Notes: a model not told the origin generated them from the sequence alone. 64,000 nt of DNA from Bdellovibrionales bacterium (GCA_965217115.1 OZ244239.1:672001-736000); one strand, 5' to 3'. Positions 3,702 through 51,351 are shown, counted from the stretch's first letter. Made by a program: numbers and translations.

Positions 3702-5126
3702 TCAAAAGTTGATGGCGGCTTTCGTTATAAAACCATAAACTAGTTTTAGTTCAGAATTTTCACTCATTTCACTCTTAAAACTATCTCCAGGAATGACAAA
3801 GCCCACCTCAGTCACCCACTTAAAGTTACGATGAATCTGACTAACGAGTGCCACATCAAATTCATAGCCTAAATCTAAAGACGCCTCTGAATTGGACAGT
3901 GATTCCTTAAGTAACTTCCCATAGGTAAACGTTCCGCGAAGAGATAGCGTCTCTGACCATTTCCAAGTTGCTCGGGGAGAGAAGTAAATAACATTGGATA
4001 AAGCCTGGTCATCGACCCTATTTGAAGAGGCTTTTGTTGAATTTCTATCAACACTGGAACGGAAAACATTTGCCTCCCCCAGAGAATGATTAAAAAGAAG
4101 CATCGCTACGTCGTAGTTTCTATCAAAAATATAACCTTCATAAGCCTCAGTATTAGGATCATCGCCACTGGCATAACCAGATTTAATTTCCCAGTGCCAA
4201 CGAGAATTGGGAACCTGATAGGCCCACTCAGTGCTCACGCCTAAACCTTGTAACTCTATATTCTCTCCAGCAGATTCAACTCCAGTGGTGCCTTTTTGTA
4301 AACCAAGCTCAATTGCAAAATGAGAATTCTCATAGTTTCTTCCAACAAAAAAATTAATGTCTTCCGTCTTCCAACCGGTAAGTATCATTTTATCTTCTAA
4401 AGGTGTACCCTCACTACCAAGAGAATCTCTAGGCGCATCATTCCCAGGGGCAGAAGCCACTCGGCTTTGATAAAACAAGCCCATCTTCAAAGCAGCATCT
4501 TTATTATTATAATTAACATTAAAGATATAGTCTGTTACATCGTCTTCAACACCCGAATTCCCTTCATTGACTTTCGCTAACATGAAACCGTAATCAATAT
4601 TGCCACTTACCATCTTGTAGGAGAAGAGATCTCTATTATCAAACCAGTGATCAAATTCACCATGTCCGTCACTAAACATCATCCCTAAGCCGAAATTCAA
4701 AGGAGCACGGCCGACAGTCAAAGTGCTATAGTCTCCCGTCCATGAAATATAGAGTTCGTTAACGGCGAGGTTTGCAAAAGCCATTCTCTGGGAAAGAACG
4801 TTGGAGTCGGTATTATCAGTAGAGTCAGTACTCCCTAGACCGTTTCCAAAAAAACCACCAACGGCAGATGTTGGGTACTCTAAGCTGTTAACTAAGTTGA
4901 ATTGACCATGAAGTTCTATGCCGTCGGCTGCAATAATATGGGGGCGCAAAATCAAATGGTGTAAACCATAGGACTTAGACCCACCCGTTGAATTTATGTC
5001 TACATTATCTAACTCAACAAACTCAAAGCGGTACAAACCCTTCCAATCAATGGAAAAAGCCTGGGTTGTCAAAGGTGTGGTCAGCGGAACTAGTAAAAAC
5101 AAAACAATCTGTAAAAGTCTTGCCAT
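3702..5126 (-). CDS. Outer-membrane beta-barrel (porin/alginate-export-like) protein
   Basis: Likely start MARLLQ (5126) after AGGGG RBS; ORF track starts at 5180. Signal peptide (..TQA-F), alternating beta-strand pattern, C-terminal Phe. Confidence 0.8.
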   Translation of the reverse strand: MARLLQIVLFLLVPLTTPLTTQAFSIDWKGLYRFEFVELDNVDINSTGGSKSYGLHHLILRPHIIAADGIELHGQFNLVNSLEYPTSAVGGFFGNGLGSTDSTDNTDSNVLSQRMAFANLAVNELYISWTGDYSTLTVGRAPLNFGLGMMFSDGHGEFDHWFDNRDLFSYKMVSGNIDYGFMLAKVNEGNSGVEDDVTDYIFNVNYNNKDAALKMGLFYQSRVASAPGNDAPRDSLGSEGTPLEDKMILTGWKTEDINFFVGRNYENSHFAIELGLQKGTTGVESAGENIELQGLGVSTEWAYQVPNSRWHWEIKSGYASGDDPNTEAYEGYIFDRNYDVAMLLFNHSLGEANVFRSSVDRNSTKASSNRVDDQALSNVIYFSPRATWKWSETLSLRGTFTYGKLLKESLSNSEASLDLGYEFDVALVSQIHRNFKWVTEVGFVIPGDSFKSEMSENSELKLVYGFITKAAINF

Positions 5127-5399
5127 AAATTCTACCCCTTTAGTGAAACCTAAAAATATCACGACGAAAGTCCCAGTCAATTAAAAAATTACAACACCAT
5201 ACATTACAATATATTTTCCCCGGGAAGAATCGCCTCTTTCTTCGTTAAGTAGCTGATTTTCGTCTCTTTTCGCCCATCTGCTGCTGAGCAGCTATTTCTC
5301 TGTCTGGGATGTGAGCTCTTTCAAACAGAGGGATCTCCCACGAGTGACGTGTTTTTCTAGGCACTTTCAATTATTTTCAAGGTGTTTTAAAAGGACGTC

Positions 5400-5675
5400 T
5401 TAATTTTGCCCGCGGCGTTTTAGCTCTTGCTCGTAGTACTTTTGATACATAATTTCCCATTCAGGAGAGTCTTCAACGACCGATCTCTGGAGAGACCGTA
5501 TCATCTTTGTTACCTTGGCATCCAACTCTTCATGGAGACGAACAAAGTCAATCACTCCCGCCTTCACAGCATTTAAGGCAGCCCTATCGTCTGTATAATC
5601 TGCTAAATCATCGTGATAAATTCCATCAGTGATTAAGTGGGCCAAGTGTGATTGACGGTCTTCACTGATAATCAC
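5400..5675 (-). CDS. DUF507-family protein
   Basis: C-terminal ..KIRSLQRSVVEDSPEWEIMYQKYYEQELKRRG-type pattern typical of DUF507; overlaps the upstream paralog (GTGA). Confidence 0.8.
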   Translation of the reverse strand: MIISEDRQSHLAHLITDGIYHDDLADYTDDRAALNAVKAGVIDFVRLHEELDAKVTKMIRSLQRSVVEDSPEWEIMYQKYYEQELKRRGQN

Positions 5676-5994: not shown

Positions 5995-8289
5995 ATGAAG
6001 CGAATATTAAAATTATCTCTTACTCTTATCTTCCTACTCTTCACCATTTTTGGTTTGTGGGTTTTTCGCCTTGATCAAACAATCAAAAATAAAATTGATG
6101 GGAATCGCTTCCTACCTCCAACAGAATTTTATTCTTCATCCACTAAATTAACTCAAAAACAGACGGTTTTCCTTCATCAAATTGACGACACCTTTCATCA
6201 AGCACAGTTTCGCAAAAGGCCTCCCAACTCATCTCTCTTTCCTGGCGACTATAGTTTGTGGAGCCCAACACAATGTCAAAAAAACACCTATCTGAAAATC
6301 CCCCCTGAAACCAAGCACTGCCTCGCCTTCAGAGATTTTAATACTTCATCCCAACAAATTCAACTTCTTGTCCTAGAAGAAAACCACACTCAAGAACATT
6401 CTAAGAAAAAAAATGAACAAAAAATCGCCTCCATCTACCAAGGACCTCCGTTTAAAGAAATCAAGCAAACACTGCTTCCCCCTCTTCTCTTTGCGCAATA
6501 CATTGGCAACTCTCCCACACAAAGAAAAATTGTCTCCCTAGGAAGTATTCCCACCCATTGTAAAAATGCTTTATTAGCCATTGAAGACAGTCAGTTTTTA
6601 GAACACTCAGGAATAAGTCCTCTGGCTATTCTAAGAGCCTTTTGGAACTTAATCAAAAAGCAAAAAATTACCCAGGGTGGTAGCACCATCACTCAACAAT
6701 TAGTCAAAGTTTATTTTCTCAATAGCGAACGTACTTTTAAACGTAAAATTATTGAAGCCGTCATGGCTCTTATCTTAGAACATCGAATTAGCAAAGACGA
6801 TATTTTAGAGCTTTATACTAACTCTATATATATGGGACAACAGGGGGTTTTTCAAATTCGAGGCTTTGCCGCTGCCTCAGAATACTATTTCAATAAACCC
6901 ATAAACAAGATCAACCTCCCCCAGTGCGCACTACTTGCCGCCACACTCAACAGCCCTGGCCTCTTCAACCCATTCACTCAACCAGAGAACTCTCGCAATC
7001 GCCGTAATCATGTCCTCAAACGAATGGCTCAATTCAAAATGATCTCCTCTCAACAAAAAGATTCTGCCCAAAAAGCTTCCCTCCCACAGAAACCCTCATC
7101 TAATCTAAAGGACAATGCTTCTTATTATATCAACGCCGTTAGACAGAAACTAAAAAAACTTAATATTTCAATGAAAGATGGAGGTAGAATTTACACCTCT
7201 CTGGATCTCAACGCACAAAAAACTGCCCGACAAGCAATCAACAGGCAACTCAACCGTCTTGAAAAAAACCGCCCTCAACTGAAAAAATCCGGCCATTCTC
7301 TACAAGCTTCTTTGATCTCCGTTGACACCGCCACGGGACATATCAATGCCTTAGTTGGAGGACGCAACTACAAAAAATCTCATTTCAATCGTGTTCTTGA
7401 ATCCAAGAGACAAATTGGTTCTTTAATGAAACCCTTTGTTTATTTAACTGCCCTAGAATCTTTAGATGAAAATGGCAACCCTATCACTCCGCTCTATCAA
7501 ATAAACGACTCTATCTTTACCCACTCCTATGAAGGACAAAAATGGACTCCCCATAACTACAATAAGAAATATCTCGGCCCTATTCCCCTCTACTTTGCTC
7601 TAAAAAACTCTCTGAATGTTCCCACCGCTAAAATTGGTTTACAAATCGGCCTCGAAGCTATTATCGACACTGCCAAACGCCTTAAAATTAGTTCCAGTCT
7701 AAAACCCGTTCCATCTCTCACTCTCGGCGCTTTTGAAGTCTCTACCTGGGAATTAGCACGGGCCTACACAGCGATCGCCCGAATGGGAAATCTCATTGAT
7801 ATTTCTCTTATACAAAAAATTGAATCCCTTAAAGGTGATACTCTTTACCTTAATTCTCCCTCGATAGAACAGGTTGTCTCCCCTAGTGTCGCAGCTGTCC
7901 TCATTGGCATACTTAAAGAAACCTTGCGCACAGGGACCGCTCGTTCCATCGGCAAGTGGTACGGCTTTAACCGTATCGCTGCTGGTAAAACTGGCACAAC
8001 GAGTGATCATCGCGATGCCTGGTTTTCAGGTTTCACACCGAGAAATCTCACCATTGTTTGGGTTGGTTTTGACGACAATCGCTCTCACAAACTGACTGGA
8101 GCCTCCGGTGCTATTCCCATCTGGGCTGATTATATGAGAAACACAACTCTACAATATCAAGACGAAGATTTTAACTGGCCAGAGAGTGTCACCCCCCATT
8201 TCTACTCCCGTGAAAACCTACAAAGATGGCCCCTCCCAGAACTGCAGTGGCCTGATTTTCAAGGAATTGAACTTATTATTAAAAAATAA
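5995..8289 (+). CDS. mrcB: Class A penicillin-binding protein (PBP1B-like transglycosylase/transpeptidase)
   Basis: GT51 motifs EDSQFLEHSG, QGGSTITQQLVK, RKIIE. Transpeptidase SxxK (GSLMK), SxN (SLN) and KTG; N-terminal TM anchor. Confidence 0.9.
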   Translation: MKRILKLSLTLIFLLFTIFGLWVFRLDQTIKNKIDGNRFLPPTEFYSSSTKLTQKQTVFLHQIDDTFHQAQFRKRPPNSSLFPGDYSLWSPTQCQKNTYLKIPPETKHCLAFRDFNTSSQQIQLLVLEENHTQEHSKKKNEQKIASIYQGPPFKEIKQTLLPPLLFAQYIGNSPTQRKIVSLGSIPTHCKNALLAIEDSQFLEHSGISPLAILRAFWNLIKKQKITQGGSTITQQLVKVYFLNSERTFKRKIIEAVMALILEHRISKDDILELYTNSIYMGQQGVFQIRGFAAASEYYFNKPINKINLPQCALLAATLNSPGLFNPFTQPENSRNRRNHVLKRMAQFKMISSQQKDSAQKASLPQKPSSNLKDNASYYINAVRQKLKKLNISMKDGGRIYTSLDLNAQKTARQAINRQLNRLEKNRPQLKKSGHSLQASLISVDTATGHINALVGGRNYKKSHFNRVLESKRQIGSLMKPFVYLTALESLDENGNPITPLYQINDSIFTHSYEGQKWTPHNYNKKYLGPIPLYFALKNSLNVPTAKIGLQIGLEAIIDTAKRLKISSSLKPVPSLTLGAFEVSTWELARAYTAIARMGNLIDISLIQKIESLKGDTLYLNSPSIEQVVSPSVAAVLIGILKETLRTGTARSIGKWYGFNRIAAGKTGTTSDHRDAWFSGFTPRNLTIVWVGFDDNRSHKLTGASGAIPIWADYMRNTTLQYQDEDFNWPESVTPHFYSRENLQRWPLPELQWPDFQGIELIIKK

Positions 8290-8380
8290 ACAATCTTCAT
8301 TCAAAATGCCAAAATGACACCTGAATTCATGGAATAATTTTCTACGGAGCTTTTACTCAGCTTCTTTCTAGACCTTTTCT

Positions 8381-8396
8381 TGGCTCTCAAATTGCT
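8381..8396 (+). promoter_or_regulatory. Sigma-54 (-24/-12) promoter of the radical SAM gene
   Basis: TGGC-TCTCAAA-TTGCT matches TGGC-N7-TTGC(A/T) and ends 45 nt before the GTG start. Confidence 0.75.
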
Positions 8397-8440
8397 ATAA
8401 CTCTAGTGAACCTACCTTAAGTAGGGCAAAAGGACACCAA

Positions 8441-9757
8441 GTGAACTTAAGAACAAGGCAAAACATTGTCTCTATTAGAACCGAAGAAGGAGATTATGTT
8501 GGTTTTCACAGCGAAAACTTAGAGGTGGCCTCCCTAGACGAGAGCGCCTGGCTAGCTATGACCGAGTCCCACGGAGGAATTGAGAAACCTACCTCACAGG
8601 CCTCTTTAGAACTCAATGTATGGAATCAATCTCGCAATCCTGATTCCAAAAATATGCTCACCTCACAAAAAGTACGCAGCATTACCATCAATGTCACCCA
8701 ACTCTGTAACTTTAACTGCTCTTACTGTGCGGCTAATGGCGATGGCACCTATGGTGACCCTGTCGCGAAAATAGATATCGAACAAACTATTCCCCAGCTC
8801 AAGTATTTCCTCAATGCTCTCACCCATGGAGATCATTTCCACATTCATTTTCTCGGTGGAGAACCACTCCTTTACCCAAAGGCCATAGAAACTATCTCTA
8901 AGTACGCTCAGCTCTTTACTGCTGGGAAAGACATATCGCTAAAATTTTCAATCACGACCAATGGAACTTTACTCACAGAAAAAAACATCCAACTTCTCAC
9001 TAAACTCAATTGCCACGTGCAAATCAGTCTTGATGGGCCTCCTGAAATCAATGATAAACAAAGACACAGTAAGAAATCACCCTTCAACACATCCAGTATT
9101 GTTCAAGGACTTAAAAGATTACAAAAAGAGGCCGCTCAACTCGGCAGTATCGGTCTTAGTGCTGTCTTCAATGAAAACAACATGAACGTGGTTGAATGCT
9201 ACGAGTTTTTAGATAAATTCGATACTGATTGGATAGAGCTGACCTTTTCTTTCACCGATAAGTCCCCACTACTTTCTCAACAGTATGCTGAGCAGATGCA
9301 GAAAGTCGCAAGCTTAGCCTATAAGAAAAATGGCCTCGATGGGTTAAAAAAAATTAAAGCCTTCAATAATATTTTAAATAATATCGACCAGCGAACTCGT
9401 ATCAGAAACTACTGTGGAGCAGGTAAAGACTTCCTCATGATAGATGCTCGTAATCAAATCTACTCATGCCCTTGGGATGTGGGGACCGTTTCGGAAAAAA
9501 TTGGAGATTTAGACAAAATTGACCAGAGAAAGCGTAGCACCTATAAAAAAGACCTCGTGGACAAAAAATCTTGTCAAACCTGCTGGGCACGCTTTCTTTG
9601 TGGTGGAGGCTGTATGTTTACCCACAAAATGGCCACTGGAAATAAGAAAAAAGTGGATAAAGATTTCTGTGACCGCACAAGAAGCTTGATTGCCACAGCA
9701 ATTATATACTATGAAAGAGAAGGGAGAAAAAATGATGAAACATATCAAAATAATTAA
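8441..9757 (+). CDS. Radical SAM/SPASM peptide maturase (CteB/SCIFF ranthisynthase-like) with probable N-terminal RRE
   Basis: CxxxCxxC (CNFNCSYC), GGEPLL, TTNG, SLDG. Seven-Cys SPASM pattern CGAG..YSC..CQTCWARFLCGGGC..FC; ~70-aa N-terminal extension; AAGGA RBS before GTG. Confidence 0.9.
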   Translation: MNLRTRQNIVSIRTEEGDYVGFHSENLEVASLDESAWLAMTESHGGIEKPTSQASLELNVWNQSRNPDSKNMLTSQKVRSITINVTQLCNFNCSYCAANGDGTYGDPVAKIDIEQTIPQLKYFLNALTHGDHFHIHFLGGEPLLYPKAIETISKYAQLFTAGKDISLKFSITTNGTLLTEKNIQLLTKLNCHVQISLDGPPEINDKQRHSKKSPFNTSSIVQGLKRLQKEAAQLGSIGLSAVFNENNMNVVECYEFLDKFDTDWIELTFSFTDKSPLLSQQYAEQMQKVASLAYKKNGLDGLKKIKAFNNILNNIDQRTRIRNYCGAGKDFLMIDARNQIYSCPWDVGTVSEKIGDLDKIDQRKRSTYKKDLVDKKSCQTCWARFLCGGGCMFTHKMATGNKKKVDKDFCDRTRSLIATAIIYYEREGRKNDETYQNN

Positions 9758-9824
9758 AAACACAGGAAAAGGCACTAAAAAGCCCTCAGGAATCCAATGT
9801 ATTCCTCTCGGAGATCTTGACTAA
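9732..9824 (+). CDS. Putative RiPP precursor peptide (M)MKHIKIIKNTGKGTKKPSGIQCIPLGDLD, not in the ORF track
   Basis: AGGGAG RBS at 9721-9726, ATG at 9732/9735, TAA at 9822-9824. Overlaps the maturase 3' end; N-terminus MKHIKI matches the SCIFF/ranthipeptide leader. Confidence 0.8.
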   Translation: MMKHIKIIKNTGKGTKKPSGIQCIPLGDLD

Positions 9825-9897
9825 TCCCTGAACGTAGCACACTGCAACGATGTTGCTGTGTACAATTCTCAATATTTCGACTACATATCTAAGAGAC

Positions 9898-11727
9898 ATG
9901 AAATCTCTCGCTCTGAATCGTATTCTAAGACTCGCCTTTGCTTTATCCATTGCTGCGCTCGTTAATGAAATTAATTTAGATTATATTGAATCCTACATAT
10001 ACGATCTTCGTGTACGTTTATCTCCAGCTCCACAAGTGTCTGGGCATGTTTCCACTGTCTCTATCTCTCCATCCACCGTTCAATTCTTCCAAGGCGTCCC
10101 CTCTATGGGACATCACGTTCAAGCACTCAAACAGTTACTAAAAGCCAATCCTCGATCTGTAACTTATCTTACTAAACCAGATCAAATTTTTGGAACTCCT
10201 AAAGAAATAGCTGAATTCGCCAAGCTCGCTAAAAAAATTCCTTTTTACGTTCTTGCCAATCATCTTTCTATGAAGGGAGAAGATAACAAATTCTCCATGC
10301 CCAAGCCTCTAAATAAACTCACAGTCTTTTCTGGTCCTAAAACAGCTGACACCACTCTTTTTGCTAAGGATGGGGTCACACGAAGAGCTCTATACTCTTA
10401 CCAAAATCAACCTTTATTACAGGTCCATCTCGCCCAATCTTATAACACCCATATTAAAGACCCTGGAAAAGTTCGAGGACTATGGAGTTTTCGTGACTCA
10501 AACCAAGTTTATATTCACTACGCCCCAAAAGGCTCCTTCATTCAAATTAAATTTGAAGACCTCGTTAAAGGAGAATTTGATCCAAAAAACATTAATGACA
10601 AAATCATTCTCATAGGAACTGATTTAGGAACAACTATCAAAAACTATGCTTCGAGCCCCTACTCAAGAGCTATTGAACATGGCCTTCCTACGCTTGAACT
10701 CAACGCTAACATGATTGACACTTTCATCCGTAACTCTGCTCCCATTCAATCACCTAAGTGGCTCAATATTCTACTTACTTTTATTACTTCTCTCATCACC
10801 GTCTATGTGGTTCTTTCCATCCACCCTCTAAATGGACTTTTGATTATTGTTGGTATCTTAGGTGTGTTCTTTCTTACGGCCTATTTATCTTATTGGCCTT
10901 TTGGAATATGGCTTAAAATATCCCACCCTATTGCCACTATCTTTATGTGTTATTACTTTTTTATTCCCTATCGACTTATTAAAGAAAATCGCCGCAGTTG
11001 GGAGTACTACCAAAAAAATAAATTACTCACTAAAGTTGAGGAGTTAAAAGATAATTTCATTAGTATGATGTCCCACGATCTTAAAACTCCCCTGGCGCGA
11101 ATCCAAGGAATGGCTGATGTCATAAGAACTGACCAAACTGTCTCTCTATCCGAACAGCAAAATCAAGCTGTTGAAACCATCCAAAGCTCATCATTGGAGT
11201 TAACAGATTTCATTGAATCCATTCTCAATTTTAGCCGTATTGAAAGCCATGGTGTCGAACTGCAATTTAAGTCACAAGATGTTAATCAGCTCATCAAAGA
11301 AAGTATTAGAAAGTTAGATTTCAAAGCCAAATCGAAGAATATCGAACTCATCAGCGAACTTGAACCTCTTTTTAGCTTGAAGATGGACCCCTATTTAATT
11401 CGCCAGATTCTTACCAATCTCATAGAGAATTCCATTAAATATAGTCCTGAAGGGACTAAAATTCTGATTAATAGTGATGAACAAGACGACTTCATTGTTG
11501 TTCAAATTTCTGACCAAGGCCAAGGGATTTCTAAAAATGATCTCGAAAATATTTTTATGAAGTTTTATCGTTGCAAAGAGGCAAAAACTTCAGCCATCAA
11601 GGGGTCAGGGTTGGGCCTTTACCTCTCTCAATACTTTGCCCATTTACATAAAGGCAAGATCACAGTGGAAAGTGATCTCAATATGGGCTCCACTTTCAAT
11701 CTCTACATCCCCTACAATAAAAATTGA
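9898..11727 (+). CDS. CHASE2-domain membrane sensor histidine kinase
   Basis: N-terminal TM, CHASE2 hallmarks (DGVTRR, DKIILIG, SPY), 3 TM helices, H-box SHDLKTPL, N/G1/F/G2 boxes. Start MKSL at 9898 likely; ORF track starts at 9850. Confidence 0.9.
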   Translation: MKSLALNRILRLAFALSIAALVNEINLDYIESYIYDLRVRLSPAPQVSGHVSTVSISPSTVQFFQGVPSMGHHVQALKQLLKANPRSVTYLTKPDQIFGTPKEIAEFAKLAKKIPFYVLANHLSMKGEDNKFSMPKPLNKLTVFSGPKTADTTLFAKDGVTRRALYSYQNQPLLQVHLAQSYNTHIKDPGKVRGLWSFRDSNQVYIHYAPKGSFIQIKFEDLVKGEFDPKNINDKIILIGTDLGTTIKNYASSPYSRAIEHGLPTLELNANMIDTFIRNSAPIQSPKWLNILLTFITSLITVYVVLSIHPLNGLLIIVGILGVFFLTAYLSYWPFGIWLKISHPIATIFMCYYFFIPYRLIKENRRSWEYYQKNKLLTKVEELKDNFISMMSHDLKTPLARIQGMADVIRTDQTVSLSEQQNQAVETIQSSSLELTDFIESILNFSRIESHGVELQFKSQDVNQLIKESIRKLDFKAKSKNIELISELEPLFSLKMDPYLIRQILTNLIENSIKYSPEGTKILINSDEQDDFIVVQISDQGQGISKNDLENIFMKFYRCKEAKTSAIKGSGLGLYLSQYFAHLHKGKITVESDLNMGSTFNLYIPYNKN

Positions 11728-11857
11728 CATTTTTCGTCTGTATTTTTTTCACACCATCCATAAATTACATAACAAGCATTTTTTTCCCAAAAACAGTCAA
11801 AAAACACTTATTATGTGAACAAGAGATATATTTGTTTTTTGCAAAGGAAATATCATT

Positions 11858-13378
11858 ATGAACCATAAGCTAAAAGTTCTTGTAGTCGATGATGACCAAG
11901 GCCTGCGGCTGTCTATCAAGAACACACTCATAAATACAGAGAGATTTGACGTCGACGAAGCCTTCGACGGTATCAACGCTCTAGAAAAAATCGCCGAAAA
12001 CAATTACTCTCTTATTCTACTCGATGTCGATATGCCCAGACTCAATGGTCTACAAACACTAAAGAAAATCAAAGAACAAGACCCCGGAATCACCGTTATT
12101 ATTATGACGGCCCATGCAACAATCAATGATGCTGTCACAGCCGTGAAAAAAGGGGCCTATAATTATCTTTCCAAACCTGTCAGTGGCAGTGAACTCATCG
12201 AAAACATAGATAATGCCCTTGCTGCTTACAATATTATCTCCAGCGTAGCTCGCTCCGCCCCTGTTCTTGTGGAAGAAGGACGTAAAATAGTGGGCAATAC
12301 AGCACAGATGCAGAAAGTCTTTAATATCATCAATCGTTTATCAAAAGTTGACACCCCAGTGCTTATCCGTGGAGCCTCTGGGACGGGAAAAGAATTAATT
12401 GCTCGCGCCATTCACATGAACTCTGATAGAAAGAATGAAAAATTTGTCGCTATCAATTGCTCCGCTATCCCTGAGAATCTTTTTGAATCAGAACTCTTCG
12501 GCCATGAAAAGGGCTCTTTCACAGGAGCTGAGCAAAGAAAAATAGGTAAATTCCAATTCGCCGAGGGCGGCACTCTTTTTCTCGATGAAGTTGGCGATAT
12601 GCCTGGACTCATGCAAGTTAAATTATTACGTGTTCTACAAGAAAAAATATTCACTCCTGTAGGCGCCAACAGAGAACTTGATTCCAATGTCCGTATTATT
12701 GCTGCCACCAACCGCCCTCTAGAGAAAATGATACAAGAAGGGACCTACAGAGAAGATCTCTTTTATCGTCTTAACGTAATGCCTATTTTTCTCCCATCTC
12801 TTAAAGAACGGGTCAATGATATCGACTCAATGGTGAATCACTTTATTAAAAAGTTCAATCACACCCACCAAAAATCCATAACTAGCGTCACTCCCGATGC
12901 TTTAGCTTGCATAAAAAAATATGACTGGCCTGGAAATATCCGTGAACTTGAAAACGTGATTGAACACGCTTTTATCATGGAGACCAACCAAGTCATTTCT
13001 GTCCTCTCACTTCCTGAGTCTTTACTCGCCTCCACAGGAGTTGACATAGACGCTCTCTGTGCGGCACAAAATAATGCCTATAATAAACTAGCTGAAAATA
13101 TGTCGATACGACAAAACGTAGCGGCCCATGAAGACAAAGAACCTGTGAATATCGATCCCACATCAGCGCCTAGTCCTGACAGCACTATCATTGAGATATC
13201 ATCTGATAACTTAGATTTTTCTGTGCAGAAAGAGTCCTTTGAAAAAGAATTTATCATTAAAGCCCTAAAAACATTTAAGGGCAGAATCAATCAAACGGCC
13301 CTACACGCCAATATTCCAAAGAAAACTCTATTGCGCAAAATCGAAAAATACGGGATCAACGCCAAAAAATATTTTTAA
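11858..13378 (+). CDS. Sigma-54-dependent NtrC-family response regulator (REC-AAA+-Fis HTH)
   Basis: REC domain (VVDDD, LLDVDMP, KP), Walker A GASGTGKE, ELFGHEKGSFTGA, Walker B FLDEVG, REDLFYRL, C-terminal HTH. Confidence 0.93.
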   Translation: MNHKLKVLVVDDDQGLRLSIKNTLINTERFDVDEAFDGINALEKIAENNYSLILLDVDMPRLNGLQTLKKIKEQDPGITVIIMTAHATINDAVTAVKKGAYNYLSKPVSGSELIENIDNALAAYNIISSVARSAPVLVEEGRKIVGNTAQMQKVFNIINRLSKVDTPVLIRGASGTGKELIARAIHMNSDRKNEKFVAINCSAIPENLFESELFGHEKGSFTGAEQRKIGKFQFAEGGTLFLDEVGDMPGLMQVKLLRVLQEKIFTPVGANRELDSNVRIIAATNRPLEKMIQEGTYREDLFYRLNVMPIFLPSLKERVNDIDSMVNHFIKKFNHTHQKSITSVTPDALACIKKYDWPGNIRELENVIEHAFIMETNQVISVLSLPESLLASTGVDIDALCAAQNNAYNKLAENMSIRQNVAAHEDKEPVNIDPTSAPSPDSTIIEISSDNLDFSVQKESFEKEFIIKALKTFKGRINQTALHANIPKKTLLRKIEKYGINAKKYF

Positions 13379-13531
13379 TAGACTCGCTTTTTAAAGAGTG
13401 ACTCAGCACCAAAAATAAGGACCCATCAAAATTGTCAATGGAAAGTTAAATTTTTCCGCGGCTCGTAAAATTTTCTAGTTTTCATTTTCTTATTGAAGTT
13501 AAAAGTAAGTGCCTGTAGTTTGCAAAACTCA

Positions 13532-13981
13532 ATGGCTGTATCTAATCTACCTCCTCAGGCTTATACCAAAGACACTCTGACAAAGGCTTTCGCCTGGTTG
13601 CAGACTCAAACAAAGGAAATCAAGGACATAGCCACTTCTCCCGAGATTTTAGTTGGTCTCTTCCACAGGGATAAACGTCGCGAAGACTTCTCTGCCCCAG
13701 CAAACTCACAAGAGTTCAAACTAGAGCTGAAGTCCCTTTCAGGAGAAATGCAGCCATTTATTAAAAAACCTCGAAAAACTGAAGAAAGTCCTCAGGCTGT
13801 CACTGCTCAGAAGGCATCAACCCAGTCTTCATTAAACCAATCTAGTTTTCTATCACAATTAGATCCTGAAACTGAAAATCTTATCAATGAAGTCACCCAA
13901 AACCTCAATCTCAGTTCTCCCAAAGAAGCCCTTCGTATGCTCATCATCCTAGGCTATAAACAAATCAAGCCTGTACTCTAA
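13532..13981 (+). CDS. Conserved hypothetical protein
   Basis: ORF with likely start MAVSNLPPQAYT; ordered N- and C-terminal regions with a linker between. Confidence 0.7.
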   Translation: MAVSNLPPQAYTKDTLTKAFAWLQTQTKEIKDIATSPEILVGLFHRDKRREDFSAPANSQEFKLELKSLSGEMQPFIKKPRKTEESPQAVTAQKASTQSSLNQSSFLSQLDPETENLINEVTQNLNLSSPKEALRMLIILGYKQIKPVL

Positions 13982-32195: not shown

Positions 32196-33578
32196 TTAAA
32201 CCTCTATTCCGTAGCTTTTAATCTTACGATGCAAATAACTTCTTTCAAGACCAATCACTTCTGCTGTCTTACTAATATTACCACCATTATCTTTAATCTT
32301 CTGCATCAGATATTTTTTTTCAAAAGCCGCTCTCGCCTGACGAAAAGTTGTGAATTCTGCAATAGAACCAACAGAGGGGGGCATTAGACTCTCAGGATCT
32401 AATAAACCAGCAAAACGAATATCATGAACATCCACATGCTCTCCTGGAGTTAAAATATAAATTCTCTCAATAAAATTTCGTAACTCTCTTACATTTCCAG
32501 GCCATTCGTAATTTACCAATGTTTGCAAAGCAGCTTTCGAAAAATTCTTTCTTAAAAACCCACCTTCTCGGCAAAAAATAGCATTGAAATGGAGTACTAA
32601 TACAGGCACATCTTCTCTTCTATCCCTCAAATCAGGTATCTCTAAAATATTTAACGCCAAACGTTGATACAGATCTTCTCTAAACTCACCTTTTGCAACT
32701 TTTTCCGCTAAATCTATGGTTGTCGCCATCACAATACGGATATCAACAACAAACTTTTCTTCTAATTTATTAAAACACCCATCTTGAAGAATTTGTATCA
32801 ACACCCCTTGAGCCTCTAAACTCAAGTGCTCTACATTATTCAAGTAGAGTGTACCACCGTGGGCCAACTCTACCTTCCCCTTCCTCAGCTCCCCCCCTGG
32901 CAGCTCTTGTTCACAATAACCAAATAGCTCTCCATACAAAAGCTCCGATGGAATCGCTGCACAGTTTAACTCCACAAAAGAAGCCCCTATCCTCGGACTT
33001 AAATAGTGACAATTCTGGGCTAAGAGGCATTTTCCACTCCCTTCACTTCCGTAAAGTAAAACCCAATTAGGAGAAGAGGCCACCCTCGCGATCACCTTTT
33101 TCACATTCATCATAGATTTACTATCGCCTACAATCGCAATATCTTTACGTAGCCTATTAAGAAGAGATTTTTTTTCATCCCTAGCTTGTCTCAGAGTCGA
33201 TATGTTTGAGATCAGAATTGAAACCTTATCAATAGATATTGGCTTTTCTATGAAATCCCAAGCCCCTAACTTAGTTGCCTTAACCGCTGTCTCAATCGTT
33301 CCGTGACCAGACATGACTATAAACTCTGGTTCAGAAATTCTCTTGTTCTGCGCCATCTCTTTAAAACGCTTTAAAACCCCTATACCGTCTATAGCCCCTG
33401 GCATCCAGATATCTAAGAGCACAATACTTGGTCTATTTTTTTCAATACTCAATAATCCACTTTGGCCATCTCTGGCAGTCAGTACCTCATGCCCTTCATC
33501 TTCTAATGAAGCCCCAAGAACCTCTCGAATAGGCTTTTCATCATCAATAATAAGAATTTTCTGTTTCCTCTTCCTCAC
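32196..33578 (-). CDS. ntrX: NtrX-like response regulator with degenerate AAA+ domain
   Basis: REC (LLDIWMP, SGHGTIETAVKATKLGA), Fis HTH (GLERSYLHRKIK); GAFTGA and Walker B motifs are altered. Follows the ntrY-like gene. Confidence 0.8.
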   Translation of the reverse strand: MRKRKQKILIIDDEKPIREVLGASLEDEGHEVLTARDGQSGLLSIEKNRPSIVLLDIWMPGAIDGIGVLKRFKEMAQNKRISEPEFIVMSGHGTIETAVKATKLGAWDFIEKPISIDKVSILISNISTLRQARDEKKSLLNRLRKDIAIVGDSKSMMNVKKVIARVASSPNWVLLYGSEGSGKCLLAQNCHYLSPRIGASFVELNCAAIPSELLYGELFGYCEQELPGGELRKGKVELAHGGTLYLNNVEHLSLEAQGVLIQILQDGCFNKLEEKFVVDIRIVMATTIDLAEKVAKGEFREDLYQRLALNILEIPDLRDRREDVPVLVLHFNAIFCREGGFLRKNFSKAALQTLVNYEWPGNVRELRNFIERIYILTPGEHVDVHDIRFAGLLDPESLMPPSVGSIAEFTTFRQARAAFEKKYLMQKIKDNGGNISKTAEVIGLERSYLHRKIKSYGIEV

Positions 33579-51335: not shown

Positions 51336-51351
51336 TGGCCTTCCTATTGCT
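51336..51351 (+). promoter_or_regulatory. Sigma-54 promoter for the small gene 51394..51609
   Basis: TGGC-CTTCCTA-TTGCT with exact spacing. Confidence 0.65.

Follow-up and report, generated by a model that had tools for sequence, protein, structure and literature searches.

A one-cysteine peptide and a radical-SAM/SPASM enzyme head a conserved, probably autoregulated sigma-54 operon for a CHASE2 kinase and an NtrC-type activator in Bdellovibrionales

We analyzed a stretch of 64,000 nucleotides (nt) from a Bdellovibrionales bacterium (GCA_965217115.1, OZ244239.1:672001-736000; hereafter, the window) and identified in the interval 8290-13378 a compact unit of four genes, all of them on the + strand. 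The order is a -24/-12 sigma-54 element, a radical S-adenosylmethionine (SAM)/SPASM enzyme, a peptide with one cysteine, a CHASE2 histidine kinase and an NtrC-type activator (Table 1). An earlier note, made from the sequence of the window, had described these features on one strand and read them as a peptide autoinducer circuit. Each feature was found where the note had placed it and is backed by domain assignments, motifs and comparison with relatives. The details of that description also held, from the GG-N10-GC spacing of the sigma-54 promoter at 8381-8396 to the kinase start 73 nt after the peptide stop, which an ATG at 9898 fits exactly, and the intact Walker motifs and GSFTGA loop of the activator. 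The parts thus described belong to known broad classes (sigma-54 promoter, NtrC-family activator, CHASE2 kinase and radical-SAM/SPASM maturase). The host genome, a single 2.17-Mb contig that is 99.4% complete, encodes rpoN, which exceeds its cut-off with 461 bits, along with nine clear enhancer-binding proteins that have a Sigma54_activat domain, the activator of the operon among them. A further Sigma54_activat match (147.9 bits) lies within the window at about 32652-33134 on the - strand (genome 704652-705134).

Table 1. Features of the four-gene unit and its borders, with positions counted from the first letter of the window.
Feature	Position	Strand	Description
PBP1b gene	5995-8289		Upstream boundary of the 8290-13378 interval
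Candidate enhancer (upstream activating sequence, UAS), AATGCCAAAATGACACC	8305-8321	.	11/14 match to GGTGTCA-N3-TGACACC; 76 nt upstream of the -24 element
Sigma-54 type -24/-12 promoter, TGGCTCTCAAATTGCT	8381-8396	+	GG-N10-GC spacing; conserved in relatives
Radical-SAM/SPASM peptide maturase, 438 amino acids (aa)	8441-9757	+	Pfam Radical_SAM E 1.4e-16; Cys motifs; GTG start
Precursor peptide, 29-30 aa, MMKHIKIIKNTGKGTKKPSGIQCIPLGDLD	9732 (or 9735)-9824	+	GGGAG ribosome-binding site; overlaps the maturase 3' end
CHASE2 sensor histidine kinase	9898-11727	+	Pfam CHASE2 E 5.3e-21, HisKA, HATPase_c; alternative start 9850
NtrC-type enhancer-binding response regulator	11858-13378	+	Response_reg, Sigma54_activat E 4.3e-71, HTH_8
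Conserved hypothetical gene	13493-13981, likely start 13532	+	Follows the activator in most related loci
ileS	from 14096		Downstream boundary, after the conserved hypothetical gene

The first gene of the unit encodes a protein with both cysteine motifs of radical-SAM/SPASM enzymes, CX3CX2C at residue 89, behind an N-terminal extension of about 75 aa, and CX2CX5CX3C at residue 378; further cysteines lie at residues 325, 343 and 410. In a sample of 60 related genomes of the same order, 18 carry an ortholog (36-46% identity, E <= 1.5e-93). These orthologs were taken from a genome-set search; a single-protein search of the genome contigs gave only distant radical-SAM enzymes (22-38% identity). Together with the short precursor gene that adjoins the enzyme in 18 of 18 loci, the cysteine motifs place it in the broad class of radical-SAM/SPASM peptide maturases. 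By sequence, it comes closest to enzymes that form thioethers, namely PapB, QhpD, the SCIFF maturase and the nif11-like peptide maturase, and among solved structures to 5wgg/5why (E 7e-26). The protein has 678 homologs at E <= 1e-40; among the best 120 of these, the named ones come mostly from Bdellovibrio, Pseudobdellovibrionaceae and Bdellovibrionota, including the cultivable Bdellovibrio bacteriovorus, and their names are mostly generic, with a few automatic labels (SCIFF maturase, heme biosynthesis protein).

Assignment to a more specific maturase family was tried and rejected in three cases. PapB substrates carry repeated Cys-X3-Asp/Glu motifs. PapB (NF047865) is the best NCBIfam match, yet the score of 185.6 bits falls short of the cut-off of 340, and the peptides at these loci have one cysteine and C-X3-D/E in 0 of 18. 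The SCIFF maturase model (TIGR03974) gave 124.5 bits versus a cut-off of 425, and the peptides have one rather than six cysteines. Anaerobic sulfatase maturases recognize the motif C/S-x-P-x-R, and formylglycine chemistry was considered because four of the peptides end in C-I-P-[IV]-R. The corresponding model (TIGR03942) scored 91.8 bits versus 349, however, and C-x-P-x-R occurs in only 4 of the 18 peptides (L094-L097), so we rejected this chemistry as a general reading. At one locus only (L099), the gene immediately upstream of that for the maturase (8637-10802 on the - strand of the locus) encodes 722 aa with an FGE-sulfatase domain, which is probably a coincidence.

The peptide gene that follows encodes an N-terminal M-K-H-I-K motif, a Lys-rich middle and a lone cysteine in a C-terminal C-I-P core. 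The product matches no NCBIfam or Pfam model and has no signal sequence. Peptides of the same family were recovered from all 18 maturase loci, each with a ribosome-binding site and exactly one cysteine. They share an N-terminal M/V-K-[HF]-I-K-K consensus and a cysteine that usually sits within G-C-[IV]-P, 3-12 residues from the end (C-x-P in 14 of the 18). Metagenomes contributed 16 more family members, 15 of them with one cysteine. The residue tracks the maturase, being present once in each of the 18 maturase-side peptides and in none of the eight Lys-rich open reading frames (ORFs) that occupy the same place in maturase-free loci (see below). This distribution argues that the cysteine is where the maturase acts. 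Given the nearest families, modification of this single conserved residue to a thioether cross-link is most likely; no acceptor residue is conserved across the 18 peptides.

Downstream of the peptide, the kinase carries its CHASE2 domain (75.8 bits versus a cut-off of 26.3) between transmembrane segments, as is characteristic of CHASE2 sensor histidine kinases. Hydropathy predicts a transmembrane helix at residues 8-24, an outside domain at 25-287 that holds CHASE2 and a transmembrane region at 288-355, followed by HisKA and HATPase_c. Of the two possible starts, 9898 is likelier than 9850 because, in the longer ORF, the alignment to orthologs begins only at residue 8-28. An AlphaFold model of the CHASE2 domain (window 9970-10767), built with an 18-row alignment, reached a predicted local distance difference test (pLDDT) score of 87.2 and a predicted template modeling (pTM) score of 0.88. 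Foldseek found no match to this model in the PDB at E <= 0.001, nor did a PDB sequence search return a match to the domain. A wide VIA-align comparison gave a best Z of 5.2 (3mvn, root-mean-square deviation 3.5 over 103 residues), which is below the meaningful level; four of the top five rows were C-terminal domains of Mur or Mpl peptide ligases, at similarly sub-meaningful Z values of 4.5-5.2. A second pair of a CHASE2 kinase and an enhancer-binding protein is encoded outside the window (genome about 2028633-2031356, - strand), and similar second hits are found in most relatives. No sigma-54-like site and no ORF of at least 100 aa precedes the kinase of this paralogous pair near 2.03 Mb, where small ORFs were not scanned.

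The activator has the domain plan of the NtrC family: a receiver with its aspartate (DVDMP at residue 56), an AAA+ domain with Walker A and B motifs (GASGTGKE at 172, LFLDE at 240) and a GAFTGA-type loop (GSFTGA at 219), and a Fis-type helix-turn-helix. It scores under the equivalog cut-offs of NtrC, AtoC and ZraR and is thus a member of the family and none of those named proteins. The gene adjoins that of the kinase in all 39 related loci that we fetched.

The promoter, TGGCTCTCAAATTGCT, lies inside the 151-nt gap behind PBP1b and 60 nt ahead of the GTG of the maturase, with a predicted transcription start near 8407. It has the GG at -24 and GC at -12 of the sigma-54 class (TGGCAC-N5-TTGCW type) in a host that, as noted, has RpoN and enhancer-binding proteins. 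Within the window alone the pattern is not significant (two matches versus 0.95 expected, with 24 of 100 shuffles equal or better); we judge it to be more than chance because it is conserved among relatives. When the 400 nt ahead of the first gene were scanned, 28 of 40 orthologous loci had the strict pattern TGG[CA]-N7-TTGC[AT] on the coding strand and 0 of 40 had it on the opposite strand; of 894 further 400-nt tiles taken from these loci, 16 had a match. In two further loci AGGC replaces TGGC. The site is always directly ahead of the first gene, be it the maturase, a small ORF or the kinase. The second exact match in the window, TGGCCTTCCTATTGCT at 51336-51351 (+), is followed on that strand only by a doubtful 113-aa ORF with a TTG start.

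Many of the loci also have a palindrome, GGTGTCA-N3-TGACACC, often 26-144 nt upstream of the sigma-54 element. Matches of at least 11/14 within 200 nt upstream of the promoter were found in 12 of 28 loci versus 12 of 1797 control tiles, and of at least 12/14 in 7 of 28 versus 0 of 1797, a contrast that is inflated and a test that is partly circular because the consensus was derived from the same loci. Among 85 promoter-like sites of the host genome, the site studied here ties with one other for the best palindrome match; a perfect palindrome is present in the host genome at one unrelated site only. The tied site, at contig position about 1409210 (+) and outside the window, has an equally good palindrome, GGTGTCAATCTGACTTT, 64 nt upstream and precedes a 175-aa ORF with a signal-peptide-like start, making it a possible second target of the same activator. 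A conserved upstream palindrome is consistent with an enhancer site, so it is plausible that an enhancer-binding protein, in the simplest case the one encoded here, activates the promoter. In the window, the gap from the stop codon of the peptide to the kinase has neither a second promoter nor, on the + strand, a terminator-like site, and no hairpin there is significant (fold z = 0.24). The gap is free of promoter-like sites in 16 of the 18 maturase loci, with L101 the clearest exception (see below).

The synteny of the unit, which the earlier note had proposed as a check, proved strict in the related genomes. Of the 18 relatives with a maturase ortholog, 17 loci were fetched (the last one is on a 2.9-kb contig), and maturase, small ORF, kinase and activator follow each other on one strand in 17 of 17. 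A scan of metagenomes with the maturase alignment added 19 orthologous loci; the kinase follows the maturase in 14 of these, four contigs are too short to judge and one (L138) is an exception taken up below.

The two-component pair is distributed more widely than the maturase. Full-length orthologs of the kinase (E <= 4e-138) were found in 40 of the 60 relatives, and 22 of these 40 have no maturase ortholog. All 22 maturase-free loci were fetched and have no match to the maturase; kinase and activator adjoin in each of them, with the conserved hypothetical gene and ileS behind them in most cases, and the sigma-54 pattern and palindrome are kept, directly before the kinase or a small ORF. In 18 of the 40 loci the slot in front of the kinase is filled by the maturase and the one-cysteine peptide, in 8 by a Lys-rich, cysteine-free ORF of 25-44 aa, in 2 by a small ORF with a signal-peptide-like N-terminus and a CVIC motif, and in 12 no small ORF was detected. 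A tree of kinase and activator follows the family labels, and the presence of the maturase requires at least 3-4 changes on it and is seen on both sides of the midpoint root. This pattern fits an old cassette that was lost repeatedly, and the simplest history would be several such losses with retention of the two-component pair.

In the maturase-free loci, the Lys-rich, cysteine-free ORFs stand directly after the promoter (L117, L119, L120, L122, L125, L126, L129 and L130). Two pairs of them have nucleotide identities of 64-69% within the ORF versus 28-33% just downstream, with differences that favor third codon positions, which points to constraint on the coding sequence. Searching 3621 small ORFs of the 22 maturase-free loci with a profile of the 18 cysteine peptides returned nothing significant; the best E value among the cysteine-free ORFs, 0.79, was that of L119, which came second in the ranking, and the other seven fell outside the top 25. 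Because the profile misses them, we call these ORFs positional analogues and not homologs. In L118 and L121, the ORF lies at about 399-295 and about 324-187 nt, respectively, ahead of the kinase and likewise directly follows a sigma-54-like promoter. Both ORFs begin with a signal-peptide-like N-terminus, which would bring the product to the side of the membrane where the CHASE2 domain lies, and carry CVIC at their C-terminal end or close to it (…IKCVIC and …RGCVICSEEQ, respectively), loosely like the G-C-I-P core of the maturase-linked peptides.

The analysis shows directly the gene content and order, the conservation of promoter and palindrome and the co-occurrence of cysteine and maturase. 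We infer from these observations co-transcription, the activator that acts, the chemistry and the role of the peptide, and consider it probable that the locus is one autoregulated two-component operon under sigma-54, headed by an optional peptide cassette that it controls. In the best reading, the kinase-activator pair is the conserved core and the cassette its optional first cargo, an output of the system and not an obligatory input. The kinase would sense a signal outside the cytoplasm and phosphorylate the activator, which would then bind the palindrome, open the sigma-54 promoter and raise transcription of its own operon in a positive autoregulation. The same transcript would give the peptide and the maturase, and the maturase would modify the single cysteine near the C-terminus of the peptide, most likely with the thioether cross-link proposed above. 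The encoded activator is the most economical candidate for the palindrome; eight other enhancer-binding proteins exist in the genome.

Several observations weigh against this reading of the locus as a single autoregulated operon. The strict promoter pattern is missing from 12 of the 40 orthologous loci, the palindrome of the window is itself imperfect (11/14) and the palindrome contrast is, as stated, partly circular. With nine enhancer-binding proteins in the genome, another one could serve the promoter. As for the chemistry, the maturase scores under every curated NCBIfam cut-off. In one lineage (L101), a long, nearly perfect inverted repeat (-62 kcal/mol) lies behind the peptide stop and a second sigma-54-like site, TGGCAGGGGCTTTGCT, lies ahead of the kinase. 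Co-transcription is thus not universal, and the unit may be split there into two transcription units. Lastly, the metagenome contig L138 has PBP1b, promoter, maturase and peptide followed by a pilin-like gene, with no kinase in the 1.7 kb downstream. The pilin-like protein has a prepilin-type N-terminus, and a secreted protein of repeated C-T-T-W-Y-T-T-N-Q-T-C-G units is encoded upstream; the stretches noted on this contig are 2542-3009 (- strand) and 4908-5468.

The autoinducer circuit of the earlier note goes further than an autoregulated operon with an optional cassette. In such a closed loop, the peptide, once modified, would leave the cytoplasm and bind the CHASE2 domain in the periplasm, and the activator would then raise peptide production. 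Part of the proposal stands, because the four genes are one conserved unit behind a conserved promoter with an enhancer-like palindrome; the peptide as an obligatory signal does not. The loop draws support from the company that maturase and peptide keep, almost always beside this kinase (17 of 17 related loci and 14 of 15 contigs long enough to judge), and from the small peptide genes of three kinds that stand between promoter and kinase in 28 of 40 loci, where the products of two (L118 and L121) would reach the CHASE2 compartment. Further, the factors recognized by CHASE2 are stated as not known in a 2016 article (PMC5192318). The pair is retained, however, in 22 of 40 relatives that lack the maturase, in 12 of which no small ORF was detected either, so the peptide is not the only or an obligatory signal of the kinase. 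The earlier note had named a pair that usually occurs without the maturase as a refutation of the circuit, and this turned out to be about half the case (22 of 40 without it, 18 with it). Its caveat that no exporter or protease gene adjoins was also borne out: the window has none, a Pfam search of 24 ORFs upstream in the 17 related loci yielded none, and Peptidase_C39 is absent from the genome, other export routes not having been searched. The peptide of the window, moreover, lacks a signal sequence, and no export route is apparent. In the sensor domain, 26 of 26 CHASE2 positions conserved in the maturase loci have the same majority residues in the maturase-free loci, which is a weak test because the maturase-free set is phylogenetically broader. 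On these grounds we regard a closed autoinducer loop as unlikely. We are similarly doubtful of a broader proposal, that the head-of-operon small peptides of all three kinds are cognate ligands or modulators of the CHASE2 sensor. If they were ligands, they would be the first ligand class for CHASE2 and would imply a sigma-54-wired peptide self-signaling loop in Bdellovibrio-like predators, with lineage-specific signal variants.

Small proteins can tune two-component systems from within, as MgrB does for PhoQ. By analogy, a peptide that is not secreted could, modified or not, act on the kinase or activator as a feedback modulator, either from inside the cell or from the membrane. The placement of peptide genes under the promoter of the system itself in 28 of 40 loci is consistent with this scenario, as are the Lys-rich peptides without an export signal and the coding constraint on the cysteine-free versions. 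Yet 12 loci have no small ORF and the profile of the cysteine peptides misses the cysteine-free ORFs, which are possibly unrelated genes, and such a modulator appears to us very unlikely. The linkage could also be positional only, with the cassette making a product of unrelated function, such as an antimicrobial or predation factor, and being served by another activator or a borrowed promoter. PBP1b upstream and IleS downstream are conserved too, so part of the synteny is general gene-order conservation; the nine enhancer-binding proteins of the genome and the promoter, maturase and peptide of L138 without an adjoining kinase also speak for such a linkage. Upstream neighbors vary, however, while the cassette sits directly before this kinase in the related loci. 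Furthermore, none of 61 more distant radical-SAM loci from metagenomes (22-33% identity) adjoins a match to this kinase, and only one (L204) has an activator match, which is weak, on the opposite strand and about 4 kb away. The same pair of palindrome and promoter also occurs with and without the cassette. We consider it highly improbable that position is all that links the cassette to the kinase and activator. An autoregulated operon with an optional peptide cassette remains the reading that we prefer.

The gene downstream of the activator (13532-13981 from its likely start) matches no Pfam or NCBIfam family, and its look-alikes in the Atlas are hypothetical proteins of Bdellovibrionota. It possibly forms part of the operon.

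In the literature on Bdellovibrio or CHASE2 we found no paper on this module. What is new is a conserved, previously undescribed family of one-cysteine peptide and maturase that heads a conserved sigma-54 CHASE2/NtrC operon. The operon gives a handle on a CHASE2 sensor, a domain whose signals are described as unknown in the 2016 article (PMC5192318). The maturase and its K-H-I-K-K...G-C-I-P peptide are a compact family that reaches no curated model, and for one enhancer-binding protein the palindrome supplies a candidate enhancer. Natural controls exist in the lineages that have the maturase, a cysteine-free peptide or no peptide at all. Should the peptide feed back on the kinase, the system would be a new kind of peptide signaling in Gram-negative predators; if it does not, the locus would still define a new peptide-modification family whose expression cue is now identifiable.

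Comparison with known systems helps place the operon. The PapB (NF047865) and SCIFF (TIGR03974, 5wgg/5why) maturases are the best NCBIfam and PDB sequence matches of its first gene, and it shares with them complete radical-SAM/SPASM cysteine motifs and a short precursor directly downstream that has a conserved N-terminal leader-like motif and a C-terminal cysteine core. It differs from them in scores far below the cut-offs (185.6 versus 340 and 124.5 versus 425 bits, respectively), in a precursor with one cysteine instead of several and, for PapB, in the absence of the C-X3-D/E substrate spacing from all 18 peptides. Nisin NisRK and staphylococcal Agr are autoinduced circuits of modified peptides. 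Like them, the operon brings together a precursor, a modifying enzyme, a membrane histidine kinase and a response regulator, behind a promoter that is probably activated by that regulator. Unlike them, it has no exporter or processing protease that we could find, its regulator is a sigma-54 AAA+ protein, its sensor is a CHASE2 protein and its host is Gram-negative; about half of the relatives, in addition, keep the kinase-regulator pair but not the peptide system. A closer parallel is glnA-ntrBC, an example of a positively autoregulated NtrC-family two-component operon. Both have a palindromic upstream site, a -24/-12 promoter and a kinase and activator inside the operon that they control, or, in the case of the operon described here, would control. 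The periplasmic CHASE2 sensor and the peptide-modification cassette at the operon start set it apart from glnA-ntrBC. By analogy, the operon resembles the nisin and Agr circuits in gene content only and would work like an autoregulated NtrBC-type operon.

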